This document shows positions 7,822 to 43,815 of a DNA stretch of 47,953 nucleotides, piece by piece (the stretch's first letter is position 1; each line of letters begins with the position of its first letter). Under the pieces are notes generated by a model. It had not been told where the DNA came from. It made no database searches and worked only from the letters and a program-made list of their open reading frames with translations. The position numbers were made by a program, and so were the translations under genes. The stretch comes from Chiloscyllium plagiosum (Eukaryota): positions 3,997,867 to 4,045,819 of the forward strand of contig NC_057760.1 in the NCBI RefSeq assembly GCF_004010195.1, given 5' to 3'.

Positions 7822-8092
7822 GTTTAGGTCAGAGTGGTGCTGGAAAAGCACAGCAGGTCAGGCAGCATCCGAGGAGCAGGAANNNNNNNNNNNNNNNNNN
7901 NNNNNNNNNNNNNNNNNNNNNNNTTTATCTCTCCACCCTGGAGGCTCCCTGCCTCCATTCCTGATGAAGGGCTTCTGCCCGAAACATGGATTTTCCTGCT
8001 CCTTGGATGCTGCCCAAACCTGCTGTGCTTTTCCAGCACCACTCCGATCTAAACTCTGGTTTCCAGCATCTGCAGTACTCACTTTTGCTCGT
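7822..8092 (+). mobile_element. Penelope-like element end with inverted 5' arm (spans gap); degenerate hammerhead at 7957-7992
   Basis: 7822-7882 is the reverse complement of ~7994-8054. TSD ATGGA(C/T)TTACATG at 7808-7820 and 8093-8105. Motif ATTC-CTGATGA-AGGGCTTCTGCCC-GAAA-CATG. Confidence 0.8.
7883..7923. other. Assembly gap
   Basis: Run of N. Confidence 1.
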
Positions 8093-10706
8093 ATGGATTT
8101 ACATGGTCTGCTTTTTTCCTACATTGTCATCTGCTGCAGTTGTAGAAAAGGCCCAAGTAAACTGATTGCGGAGGGTAAAAGGCTGAGCAGGGAAATAAAA
8201 GTCAAGCTGAAAATAAGAAAGTTATGGTTGAGAAGATGGATTGCAGAAGCATGACCGAGAGGATATGAGGTTAGAAATGAGACAAAACCGCAGACAACAT
8301 TTTCTCAATGACACAGGGCAGTCCTACTATGGTCAGTAACAGAGTATGCTACTTGTGATAATGTTTGATTAACACTTGATAGATTTGGAAGGAAACCAGA
8401 CATTCACACGATGACAAAGGAAAGGTCTGAGAGACAGGACAGTGTGCTGCAAAGTCAGAGGTGGAGAGGCTTTTCTTCAGGAGTCATGTAGTTGAACCAT
8501 ACTGCAAAGAAGGAGGTGCATTCAGCTCATTGAGCCTGTGCCGCTCTTTGTTAGAGCTATCCAATTAGTCCTAATAATCCATTCTTTCCTCATAGCTCTG
8601 AAAATTATTCCCCATTCATTCTCATGATTATTTCACTTTTAAAAGTGTATTATTGAAATCACTTCCTTTTGGGCACTGAATTCTAGATTGCCATTCAGAT
8701 CAACTCACTGAACAAAACTCTGCTTCCTCCTATCACCTTCAGTTCTTTTGCCAATTATCTTAAATCTGTATCCTCAAGTTACTGAAACTCCTGTTACTGT
8801 AAACAATTTCTCATTCCATACTCTTATAGTTGCTTGATCGTTCAGAATTTAAGTATTGCTGCATAAAAGACTTTTTGCCAAAGCTCTGCGTAATGCACCC
8901 ATCAGCATCCGCCATGACAACACCTCTTCTGGAAGCCATCTGCCAACAAACCAGTACTCTCCTCTCACAGTACAAAACGTTCATACTTGACTTTGATATT
9001 TCTTGCTAAAAGTCCTGATGAGTGCAAAATGAAAATCTTTTTTTACTTACTGCATTAAACCCACTATTTTGAACACTTCGAGCTAATCGCTCTTAACATC
9101 TGTGTGTAACTGAGAATAACTCCAGTTCCTTTTATCATTTCACATTAATGAAACTTCTAATAAACTTCTGCATCAAATCAAAAGCCTTGTAATCGCCCCA
9201 GAACTGGAGTACCTGGAACTGGTCATTTGCAATCCAAGCAATATTAAGAAAAGGACCAATCTTTGTTTCTGTACTCCTTATAAGCATTTTTTTGAAAAAA
9301 TAGAGTTGGAAAGTTAAGGTGTGAACTGAGCAAAGTACTGGTCTCTGAAAGCAATTTAAAACATTTAGTCATGGAGTCTTAATAGGCCTTGTGAGAAAGC
9401 CAGTTATGTACAGGCACTGGTTGCATAAGAACAGATCCTTCTAGCTCTTGTCCAGCCAAATACAAAGCAAATCTCAAGGGAAGTGGTGGGTAAAGAATCC
9501 TGAAGTAAAGACCTTGAAGTAACAGCAAAACAACTCTCAGGTTTACACCAGCCAAGAAAAGAAGCATTATGACCAGAGCCTGTGCTATTGTGACGTGATG
9601 ACAGATATATTTTTGCAGCAATCCAGCTTTCATGAGAACAATTTTTTATGCTGTGATTCAATGGGTTTTAATAATTTTAATAACCTAAGTTGGAACTTTA
9701 AAAATAACCATTTCCCACCAATATTCAAAGTGACTCGTCACAAATAACTGTGTACTTCACGAACGAAGAACTTATTACACAGCCAAGACTGGAAGGCCAA
9801 TTATAAAAGTATTGTAATTTCCAGTGCCTCTCAAACACTCCCTACTCCAATCAGAAAGTAAGATATTGGAGCAAAGGATGCAGCAAAATCAGCAACAGAA
9901 TTTGAGAAGAGATGGGGTGATATTACTACAAAATGTGGCTTCATGTACTTTCCCGAGGAACATGTCAGCATATGCAAGATAGAGAGAAGAAGTCAATGTG
10001 GGAGACAAAAAGGTAGAATATAAGAGTGCATGAGGATTTGATAGAAGCTTTTTGTTCATGGGATCAACATATTTTTGGAAATGTGAGCATTCACTGGCCA
10101 TTCTTAACTGCCATTAAGAAGGTAGCAGTGAACCACAGTCAAGTTCCCAATGAAAAGACATGTTGCACCTCTTAAACCTGCACTGAGCTTAACTGGAATA
10201 CTTCAAGAGCCAGAGAGCAGAGACGTGAGCATTGGGGCATACTGCAGAATTTAAATGACAGGTGACTAGAACGTCTAAGCCATGGAGGTGTCTTGTAAAG
10301 TGGTCCTCTCCATATGGTCTCTTCAACATAGAGGACATCATGTCAGGAGCAGTGACTACAATATATAAAATAGAATTAATCGCTGTTTCAATTTTCAGAA
10401 ATGTTTGGGGCCTTTGTGAGAAGGAAAGGAAGGGTGTTCTATCTTATGTGCTTCCATTTGGGAAGCTTATTTGGGAAGCAGAGGGGATGTCGATGGTGAC
10501 TGAGGGGCAGAACATTTTACCTATGCCCAAACATATTTAGTAATATCAGTTAATAAACTGATCATACGTCTCATAGTCCCTGTACAGCATTGCTAACCTA
10601 GAATAGCTGCTGTAAAGCCACTACCCTTTAAAAACTACATCTATGAAGCAGAGGTATTTTTCGTGAACAGTGCTGCTATAAAATCTACACTTCACATTTT
10701 ACTTAC

Positions 10707-10943
10707 TTGTAGTCGTCCATCTAGGGTCCGCTGGATTGTAACGCACTTGCTGGGATGTGCTCCATTGGTTGTAATAGCTGTAATCAATGAATCCAACTCA
10801 TCCTTCTTTTCTTTGAGCTTTTTCACTAAACTCTCAATGGCACGTTTAGCAAAGGTCTCATTCTCCCCACCTTGTCGATGGCACATCAGACTGTGCACGA
10901 TGCTCAGGCATGCATCATTGCTGGTGGGAGGGTTCAAAGACAT
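10707..10943 (-). CDS. SMAD4: First coding exon of a SMAD4-family co-Smad (MH1 N-terminus, 79 codons); probably the smad10/Smad4-beta paralogue
   Basis: [79 protein letters not shown]. Acceptor ttctggcttcctgcag| puts the exon start at 10957. Donor CAA|GTAAGT at 10706 matches the conserved phase-0 junction after GRLQ in vertebrate SMAD4. Confidence 0.96.
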
Positions 10944-11311
10944 AGTGCAGCTTGCTTCTGCAGGAAGCCAGAAAACAAATGATGTTTAGAGAAGGTTCAA
11001 GTAAAAAGTTACACCCATTAGTAAAATTAGTCAGATACAAATAAACTTGACTCGGTTATATTCTTGCCTTGAATCAGAAAGTTACAAATTCACACAATTA
11101 TATAACACCTTTAATAAAGAAAAACATCTCATGCAACCTCAAAGGATTGAAAATCAGTCAAAAACAATCGAGACTGAATAAAAGGAGACAGTAGGATGTG
11201 TCTAAACGTTCAATCACTTGAGAATGCAGCTTTAAGAAAGTTCTAGAATTTGCATATGAAAGAACTGAAACCAACATGCCCATTATAAAAGATGAGAGAC
11301 TTAACAAACAA

Positions 11312-11517
11312 TCCAGGTCTTTTTCAATATATAATTTCAGTTACATCACATTGTAAACTTTTGCTATAAATTCTGTGCCCGAGAATCTTATACTCTACAA
11401 CCACCTGATGAGGCAGTGCTCCGAAAGCTAGTACTTCCAAATAAACCTGTTGGATAGCCAGGTGTTGTGTGATTTTGAACTTTGTACACCCCAGTCCAAC
11501 ACCAGCATCTCCAAATC
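11312..11517 (+). mobile_element. Penelope-like element 3' end (family 2) with degenerate hammerhead at 11402-11433
   Basis: Same sequence as the 25531-25748 element. Motif CAC-CTGATGA-GGCAGTGCTCC-GAAA-GC-TA-GTA. Confidence 0.75.
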
Positions 11518-42331: not shown

Positions 42332-42569
42332 GAACAAAGAACATTAGAGCACAGGAACAGGTCCTTCTGCCCTCCAAGCCTGCACCAATCCAGATCCTCT
42401 ATCTAAACTTGCTGTCTATTTTCTAAGGATCCCTTCGCTCCCAACCCATTCATGTATCTGTGTAGATACATCTAGACTGACACTATCATTCCTGCCCCTA
42501 CCATCTCTGCTGGCAACGCATTCCAGGCACCCACCACCCTCTGCGTGAAGAGCTTTCCATGTATATCTC

Positions 42570-42797
42570 GGTAGTGGCTCAGTGGTTAGCACTGATGTTT
42601 CACAGCACCAAGGACCCGGGTTTGATTTCAGCCTTGGGCCAATGTCTATGTGGAGTTTGCACATCCTCCTGACGTCTGCGTGGGTTTCCTCTGGGTGCTC
42701 TGGTTTCCTCCCGCATTCCAAAAGATGTGCAGGTCAGATGAATTCGCTATGCTAAATTGCCCGTAGTGTTAGGTGCATTAGTCAGGGGGAAATATAG
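42570..42797 (+). mobile_element. HE1/V-SINE-type SINE 5' part (tail resumes at 45091-45152)
   Basis: GTGGCTCAGTGGTTAGCACTG head and V core. Tail GGGTGGGTTAC..GAAGGGTCTGTTTCCACATTGT..TCTAATC at 45091-45152. Confidence 0.8.
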
Positions 42798-43442
42798 CAG
42801 AAGAAGGAGGCTTGTGTGTTGATGAGGCAAGATGGTTCAGATGAGGCAGTGGAGAGTTACAGATCAGCTAGGAAGGATCTAAAGAGAGTTGAGAAGAGCA
42901 ATGAGAGGACACGATCAGTCTTTAGCAAATAGAATAAAGAAGAACTCTAAAGCTTTCTATAGCTATGTGAGGAATAAGAGGATGACTAGGGTAGGAATAG
43001 GGCCTGTCAAAGACAGAAGTGGGAAGTTGAAGGTGGACCCTGTGGAGATCAGGAGAACTGCTAAACGAACATATCTCATCGGTTTTCACTCAGGAAAAGG
43101 AGAACATTGTAGAGGAGTAGAATGAGGTACGAGATATTAGACTAGAAAGGATCGAGGTTAGTTACAAACAGGTGTTATCAATTCTAGAAGGAGCGAAAGT
43201 AGACAAGTGCCTTGGGCCAGATGGAATTTATTCGAGGATTCTCTTGGAAGCTAGGGGGGAGATAGCAGAGCCTTTGGCTTTAATATTTGAGTCGTCATTG
43301 TCTACAAGGTTTACTACCAGAGGACTGGAGGATTGCAAATGTTGTGCCCTTGTACAAGGAGGGTAGTAGACCTAGACCAGTGAGCCTTCCTTCTGTTGTA
43401 GGGAAGGTTTTGGAAAGGATTATAAGAGATGAGATTTATAAT

Positions 43443-43815
43443 TCCACCTATCACATTTCCGACGCCCCTCCCCACCTTTTATCTTAGCCTGCTGGATGAA
43501 CTCGGATTTCACCAGTTTCCTCATTTCCCCTCCCCCCACCTTGTCTCAGTCAAATCCATCGAATTCAGCACCGCCTTCCTAACCTGCAATCTTCTTCCTG
43601 ACCTCTCCGCCCCCACCCCAGTCTGACCTATCACCCTCACCTTGACCTCTTTCCACCTATCACATTTCCGACGCCACTCCCCCAAGTCCCTCCTCCCTAC
43701 CTTTTATCTTAGCCTGCTAGACAAACTTTCCTCATTCCTGAAGAAGGGCTTATGCCCGAAACGTCGATTCTCCTGTTCCCTGGATGCTGCGCTTTTCCAG
43801 CAACACATTTTCAGC
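43443..43815 (+). mobile_element. Penelope-like 3' region (family 1), rearranged, lacking the tail
   Basis: TSD ATGAGATTTATAAT at 43429-43442 and 43816-43829. Confidence 0.88.
43734..43769 (+). ncRNA. Minimal type-I hammerhead ribozyme (family 1)
   Basis: AUUC-CUGAAGA-AGGGCUUAUGCCC-GAAA-CG-UC^-GAUU. Confidence 0.8.

Follow-up and report, generated by a model that had tools for sequence, protein, structure and literature searches.

What are the short hammerhead-like motifs that recur through a 47,953-nt stretch of the Chiloscyllium plagiosum genome (GCF_004010195.1, NC_057760.1:3,997,867-4,045,819; genome 3.56 Gb), and do they cut RNA? The stretch, here called the window, was originally predicted to hold approximately nine intact minimal type-I hammerhead ribozymes (HHRs) carried by Penelope-like elements (PLEs). 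As to class, that prediction is almost certainly right: core, stems and links to open reading frames (ORFs) all fit PLE-borne minimal type-I hammerhead sequences. The scattered copies are very probably inert for the most part, and, by analogy with known systems, dimer cutting may well be the selected function in the parent elements. The reading favored here, to which we give a probability of roughly 0.8, is that the motifs are minimal HHRs of PLE pseudo-long terminal repeats (pseudo-LTRs), that the window copies are likely inert stubs, and that cutting would occur only as a palindrome-paired, probably protein-assisted dimer in tandem full-length transcripts. The class has been in print since 2014; what is new is its family members in this genome, which are unusual in number.

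A descriptor of the core (CUGANGA-N(8-30)-GAAA-(CG/GC)-UH, both strands) matches the window 11 times, compared to a mean of 0.195 and a maximum of 2 in 200 dinucleotide shuffles, and matches the genome 222,730 times (approximately 63 per Mb), compared to 2,917 in the control. The descriptor check proposed with the original prediction is thus borne out at both scales, and the excess over both controls excludes a chance origin of the cores. Seven of the 11 have all the stems of their family (25664+, 28519+, 35969-, 36144+, 39259-, 41043- and 43738+) and two have a single stem-II mismatch (25624- and 31419+), in agreement with the nine motifs expected; the other two are damaged, by loss of 3 nt from stem II (11405+) or by a G.G in stem I (26268-). 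A BLAST search with one copy per family returns 22 window matches, comprising the 11 exact cores, eight decayed cores and three tails. The density of exact cores is approximately 3.7 times the genome mean (3.0 expected; P=3e-4, clustering ignored).

The predicted architecture holds in its overall core layout and omits one feature, an extra nucleotide between A9 and G10.1, which is present in 10 of the 11 window cores (the exception is a copy with a deletion). Because the motifs have this nucleotide, a descriptor without it finds nothing in the window. Among clustered genomic copies it is A in 72/72 of family A and 40/40 of family B, and U in 55/55 C/D-type copies; a G10.1-Y11.1 pair is present in the families tested, and a tighter pattern demanding both features matches the genome 202,303 times (control 238). 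Helix III is, as claimed, replaced by a 4-nt palindrome, ACGU in families A, C and D and AGCU in family B (169,551 and 53,179 genomic matches; controls 2,472 and 445), other forms being mainly CA/TG products of CpG decay. The single-decay CA form alone accounts for 63,431 matches (control 1,898). Stem I is 3 bp long in B, C and D and 2 bp plus a U.U in most A copies: the AUUC/GAAU stem ascribed to family A occurs in a subfamily (31419), and 56/72 copies have AUUC/GAUU with the mismatch.

Pairing in stem II reaches 80-100% in all families, apart from one mismatched position in C. The compensatory changes described earlier fall between families, not within them. The outer pair of stem I varies among GC, CG and UA across C/D/E-type rows, and 94% of cells are paired, a level reached by 6-7 of 500 shuffles and not decisive with only five rows that are related to one another. 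Within families stem changes are one-sided, mostly CpG transitions, which implies that copies decay after insertion. At least three further, older hammerhead families, with stem I of the UCA/UGA, AGUU/AACU and AUC/GAC types and palindromes mostly lost to CpG decay, are seen outside the window (L109:2638, L189:2087-2108, L186, L188, L156 and L151; L numbers denote genomic loci); they form small clusters and singletons among the clustered copies. AGCU hammerhead-like cores with poor stems inside antisense sequence of a CR1-type-looking long interspersed element (LINE), at L067 and L069, are probably background.

All four families are tied to endonuclease-bearing PLEs. The original prediction had linked three; that link is real, and the one for family B is established here. 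Two of the ORF remnants it named are endonuclease pieces (33277-33352 and 39440-39675), and the third, 26485-26655, is the linker between reverse transcriptase (RT) and endonuclease, not a GIY-YIG core. A single ORF, RT followed by GIY-YIG, is read in the families, with every copy broken; in B the endonuclease is read and the RT core lies outside the part examined. GIY-YIG-type sequence is directly readable in translations of all four. A family A locus, L100, has an RVT_1 match (E 5e-7, over the cut-off) and an endonuclease in a frameshifted ORF, and family D loci continue into coding sequence with RT motifs and a GIY-YIG-type endonuclease. In family B the endonuclease ORF lies upstream of a (CA)n-rich 3' untranslated region (UTR). 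The family C locus L115 is a partial tandem: direct repeats of 534 bp with 94.9% identity flank an ORF that has an RVT_1 match (E 2e-11, over the cut-off) and three in-frame stops. Both repeats contain a core, and the two ribozymes are 2,503 bp apart. Cores are downstream of the ORF in A, B and D, and in A and B the motif sits in untranslated sequence 200-900 nt beyond the stop.

Contrary to what had been supposed, the families are not all unrelated. Between C and D, protein identity is 60% for the endonuclease and 67% for the RT, compared to 28% for A and B (endonuclease) and 23-26% for A and C or D (RT); on these sequences C and D are sister families, and the diversity amounts to three lineages. 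Between RT and endonuclease, A and B have the linkers CHHRNCKTC and CHGRRCKTC (CX4CxxC), and the stretches of C and D that were translated show no CX2-5CxxC linker. According to PMC8557442, this linker marks Neptune as opposed to Penelope/Poseidon PLEs. Judged by the linker motif, A and B would be Neptune-type and C and D Poseidon-type. Open frames of 800-2,600 codons in family A were discarded: 11 of the 12 loci owe them to runs of N, and the twelfth is the frameshifted L100. The flanks of L001 and L012 have long stop-free stretches that are retroviral pol-like (RT/RNase H) and lie beside, or are interrupted by, PLE stubs.

The copies in the window are as follows.

7957-8085, plus strand: family A decayed copy (motif part 7957-7988), palindrome CG changed to CA and cut triplet lost, with an inverted tail beyond an assembly gap; it lies at the start of the span named in the original prediction.
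11405-11430, plus strand: family B exact core, damaged by a 3-nt deletion that shortens stem II; antisense in an intron of the SMAD-type gene.
25535-25748, unstranded: family B fold-back of two head-to-head stubs, with a 14-bp target-site duplication and an extra 37-nt tail on the left arm only.
25624-25652, minus strand: family B core with a CAC/GUG stem I, an AGCU palindrome and a single mismatch in stem II.
25664-25692, plus strand: family B intact core, predicted cut after 25692, AUUAAA at 25704-25709; reads of the family are polyadenylated behind 25724.
26268-26301, minus strand: family C exact core, stem I disrupted (G.G).
26485-26655, minus strand: family C ORF remnant, RT-endonuclease linker.
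28511-28641, plus strand: family A solo stub (ribozyme and tail only), 11-bp target-site duplication, intact core 28519-28546.
31411-31509, plus strand: family A subfamily stub, 16-bp duplication, core 31419-31446 with a 4-bp stem I and one stem-II mismatch.
32078-32160, plus strand: family A decayed copy.
33230-33667, plus strand: family A truncated copy with an inverted tail piece, endonuclease C-terminus (33277-33352), pyrimidine-rich 3' UTR and decayed core (cut position 33602).
34213-34438, unstranded: family A fold-back, two decayed cores, 11-bp duplication.
35904-36464, unstranded: family A compound fold-back with an 11-bp duplication; the cores 35969-35996 (-) and 36144-36171 (+) are intact, and a third (cut position 36365, +) has a deletion.
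39213-39968, unstranded: family D fold-back that contains the GIY-YIG remnant 39440-39675; its core 39259-39292 (-) is intact and the partner (cut position 39946, +) decayed.
41001-41432, unstranded: family C fold-back, 15-bp duplication, core 41043-41076 (-) of the family form and decayed partner (cut position 41355, +).
43441-43816, plus strand: family A truncated copy flanked by a 14-bp duplication; its core 43738-43765 is intact.

Target-site duplications of 11-16 bp flank 7 of 12 window elements. A 3-nt core deletion recurs in four window copies and is rare elsewhere. The genome sample consists of 60 evenly chosen 10-kb stretches, in which 97 copies extend across the motif (65 of family A, 19 of B, 8 of C and 5 of D). 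The 3' ends of insertions fall 40-105 nt beyond the cut site and form two peaks per family, approximately 35-40 nt apart (A +60-69 and +100-109; B +55-64 and +90-104; C +40-49 and +70-84; D +40-54 and +80-89), and of 273 copies just one terminates within 10 nt of the cut. In family A, many copies measure only 90-140 bp and start at the 5' edge of the ribozyme; of 117 5' ends, 29 lie within 50 nt of the cut and the others are staggered up into the ORF. A head-to-head partner lies within 2.5 kb of 55/97 sampled copies, with 43 such pairs compared to 15 tail-to-tail, and 16 of the 43 turn within 73 nt, at that same 5' edge. Five window fold-backs are predicted by a folding model to be 77-90% paired.

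The 5'-edge hot spot could be a transcription start or a site of RT stalling; the sequence UCAUUC there is initiator-like. Truncations and inversion turns at this edge are also seen in individual A and B fold-backs (window 25652-25664 and 34304-34309; L006 and L104), and at 31394-31524 one PLE is nested in another, a family A stub lying within an older family B tail and flanked by a 16-bp duplication. The densest sampled cluster, L179:5244-6900, packs seven family B stubs in both orientations into 1.7 kb as an irregular fold-back pile; no hammerhead tandem array is present there or in the window. Copying that starts just downstream of the ribozyme, together with heavy truncation, would leave the motif in almost every insertion and so account for the high counts.

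An exact core is kept in 34/97 sampled copies; extrapolation from the sample gives roughly 5-6e5 copies genome-wide, decayed ones included. Among 35 sampled exact cores, 28 have a stem II of at least 4 bp with a stem I of at least 2 bp, and 10 have a stem I of at least 3 bp; a strict-stem count would be nearer 6e4. The predicted large and poorly catalogued population is therefore real in number, with 222,730 exact cores and no Rfam hammerhead hit. To call it a ribozyme population overstates the case: approximately two-thirds of sampled copies have lost the core, more than half lie beside an inverted partner that is expected to sequester them, and tests for sense depletion and for read ends at the cut (the latter a weak test) are negative. 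The proposed Rfam check fails on the window, where no hammerhead family is among 16 matches at E<=10; the microRNA matches in that scan were rejected as PLE fold-back hairpins, all under gathering scores. Rfam thus misses the class, and what a motif count reflects in genomes of this sort is debris left by retrotransposons rather than active ribozymes.

In C and D the hammerhead overlaps codons. The stop codon of the upstream ORF lies in loop II (the frames end ..EDVT and ..DDVT before the stop) and the next ATG is formed by A9-U-G10.1, so that a single motif encodes how one ORF ends (its final five residues and the stop) and where the next begins, with the extra nucleotide as the U of the ATG. 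The arrangement is seen at window 39259-39292 (-) and 41043-41076 (-) and at L115:3365-3398, where the ATG at the start of stem II opens at least 500 codons. Family B differs in its tail. An AWUAAA signal is present in 67/92 B tails, compared to 7/117, 1/15 and 5/50 in A, C and D; it lies 10-17 nt behind the cut site and is followed by a GU-rich stretch (window 25693-25745). RNA data come from one single-cell poly(A) run (X19), approximately 2% of it read, with 7,290 reads mapped at >=88% to window 25400-30200; 97% of these continue into other loci. A second run, X20, gave no mapped reads, and the contig runs X1 and X3, which may include DNA, are not counted as evidence. In 320 reads poly(A) follows 25724, which is 32 nt past the family B cut and upstream of both insertion 3' end points. 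The polyadenylated form of the tail has no exact match in the genome. With approximately 53,000 exact AGCU cores, the family B tail could supply many host poly(A) sites.

A more far-reaching and decidedly tentative picture would make the PLE hammerhead a control hub. In the Poseidon-type families, a protein-gated cut would remove the start codon and turn message into (perhaps circular) template; in Neptune-type B, the poly(A) signal would end transcripts before the sites where reverse transcription starts, and portable poly(A) cassettes would have spread through the host genome in tens of thousands. The genome would then hold the densest hammerhead population on record (approximately 2.2e5 intact cores, or 5-6e5 with decayed ones).

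How would the parent elements use the motif? In a tandem transcript, two ACGU or AGCU palindromes would pair as helix III and each stem I would form between the copies. The dimer cut would release unit-length RNA, perhaps circularized, and in C and D would separate the ORF from its start codon. Reverse transcription would start at two tail sites downstream of the ribozyme, as in the anole element PAc, on uncut or re-ligated RNA, and would usually halt early, leaving a ribozyme in even the shortest insertions. Since insertions end past the cut, the template was likely uncut or re-ligated; a re-ligated circle would account both for the partial tandems and for insertions that cross the cut site.

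Several observations count against this proposal. Two free monomers are favored over the modeled double hammerhead by 4.1-7.5 kcal/mol (in a model that ignores core contacts), which agrees with the low in vitro rates published for PLE hammerheads (PMC4209133) and with the protein-assisted cutting of PAc, and family A, the commonest, has the 2-bp stem I with its U.U. No pile-up of read starts or ends is seen at the B, C or A motifs, and X19 reads cross the site, a single-cell poly(A) library being a weak test for cut ends. Elsewhere, PAc inserts in vitro without need of its ribozyme (PMC11167929), and eight of nine Xenopus retrozyme dimers stay uncut (bioRxiv 2026.07.22.740005). Among the carriers, Pfam GIY-YIG matches two of nine fragments, weakly and below the cut-off (A, E 0.04; D, E 0.009), with no match for B or C; and no intact full-length ORF is found among 20 genomic loci searched for autonomous copies, a weak negative in a gapped assembly. 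Finally, exact solo copies in presumed introns number 16 sense and 6 antisense (p=0.052), a bias opposite to harm and one that the proposal does not predict.

The most serious competitor, though still a doubtful one, is that the hammerhead is dispensable as a cutter, being a PLE passenger or a folded signal (for translation start or stop, protein binding or termination) whose core is kept partly by coding overlap. In PAc, mutation of the core leaves insertion in vitro normal, and RNA-seq reveals no ends at the site (PMC11167929); Naiads thrive without a hammerhead, and HHRs have been suggested to parasitize PLEs (PMC8557442). In the present genome the C/D core encodes residues, stop and start, and neither insertion ends nor read ends mark the cut. 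Against this, A and B, whose motif is untranslated, likewise retain the full catalytic core, the cut triplet and the palindrome, across lineages 23-28% identical in protein, which argues for selection on catalysis; and uncut-looking insertions are equally expected from a re-ligated circle. It is far less likely that dispersed copies are active ribozymes that cut host pre-mRNAs through neighboring same-strand pairs and shape expression. The density of exact cores and the presence of motif RNA in poly(A) reads would suit that idea, as would the orientation of 7/7 window solo copies (those without a ribozyme-bearing partner except the stem-damaged 26268) antisense to two host genes. This antisense bias is not upheld in 760 kb of presumed intron between same-strand laminin-G exons (PF02210 matches; 600 kb from minus-strand and 160 kb from plus-strand genes, gene spans inferred), where solo copies are 35 sense and 34 antisense, compared to 43 and 45 for a short interspersed element (SINE) control. 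The sense strand of this sample tolerates 27 exact cores; same-family, same-strand exact neighbors are mostly many kb apart, and CpG decay of the palindrome is common.

A similarly slim chance attaches to non-LTR retrozymes, short tandem units that self-cleave to circles and are copied by PLE enzymes. The short family A copies that begin at the ribozyme edge invite this explanation, and retrozymes are known in one chondrichthyan (bioRxiv 2026.07.22.740005). Tandem arrays are missing from the window, direct neighbors are irregularly spaced, the densest cluster is a fold-back pile, 5' ends are staggered into the ORF and the canonical 6-bp helix I is absent. The data suggest a template that is uncut or re-ligated and scattered copies that are harmless to host introns. 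The sheer number of copies, hundreds of thousands from four families and two PLE clades, gives this genome unusual statistical power for the study of end points, fold-back junctions and strand bias.

How do these families compare with known systems? Minimal HHRs in metazoan PLE pseudo-LTRs were reported by Cervera and De la Pena in 2014, with approximately 4,000 in coelacanth and 9,000 in X. tropicalis and with low in vitro rates (PMC4209133). The present motifs share with them the type-I form, the palindromic 15.2-16.2 pairs as sole helix III, the extra nucleotide 9/10.1, the G10.1-Y11.1 pair and the short helix I, along with a predominance of solo or inverted copies, the presence of several families in one genome and two copies approximately 2.5-3 kb apart around an ORF. 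They differ in number, at 222,730 exact cores by a different descriptor. Sharks are not mentioned in the available text of that paper or in its searchable supplement files. A PLE expansion in whale shark has been noted (bioRxiv 443036), and the open literature, Repbase and Dfam being outside the scope, yielded no PLE hammerhead count for sharks beyond the one chondrichthyan with retrozymes. Counts here exceed the published figures found, including up to 120,000 retrozyme copies in axolotl (PMC7229834), by descriptors that differ.

The closest relative of C and D in behavior is PAc, a Poseidon element of Anolis carolinensis (Frangieh et al. 2024), whose tail is tied to two internal RT start sites and whose cutting is protein-assisted (PMC11167929). 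As in PAc, the ORF starts at the base of stem II, the cut falls within coding sequence (by our own count, likewise 26 nt behind the A of the ATG) and two 3' end points lie approximately 35-40 nt apart. Uncut RNA dominates in PAc RNA-seq, and poly(A) reads here likewise span the B, C and A motifs. Unlike in PAc, the upstream stop also lies in loop II, and the tails, at +41/+80, are shorter. Families A and B resemble Neptune PLEs (Arkhipova 2006, via PMC8557442) in the C-terminal GIY-YIG with internal cysteines, the CX2-5CxxC linker, inverted 5'-truncated copies and an optional 30-40-bp tail; the (CA)n-rich 3' UTR and poly(A) signal of B are not described in the papers compared. Retrozymes (PMC7229834; bioRxiv 2026.07.22.740005) share the type-I form, dimer dependence in vertebrates, PLE pseudo-LTR ancestry and very high copy number. 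They differ in forming regular tandem units, whose hammerheads are mostly canonical, and in having circular RNAs; the copies seen here are staggered truncations and fold-backs of coding PLEs.

Dimer cleavage is reportedly named in the very title of a study by Lunse et al. As for the setting, most of the window motifs lie in presumed introns or in DNA between two host genes on the same strand. One gene is marked by an MH1-domain exon at 10701-10943 (-), which we take from its translation to belong to a SMAD4-like gene, and the other by a last coding exon with a FoP/CHTOP C-terminal domain at 38618-38821 (-), presumably of CHTOP. A likely non-coding first exon with a CpG/CCAAT promoter for the MH1 gene lies approximately 20 kb upstream, at 30.9-31.1 kb (30890-31140). 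CR1-type LINE fragments occupy a large part of the window, and the tRNA-type SINE copies at 21345-21655 and 32569-32870 resemble elasmobranch HE1.

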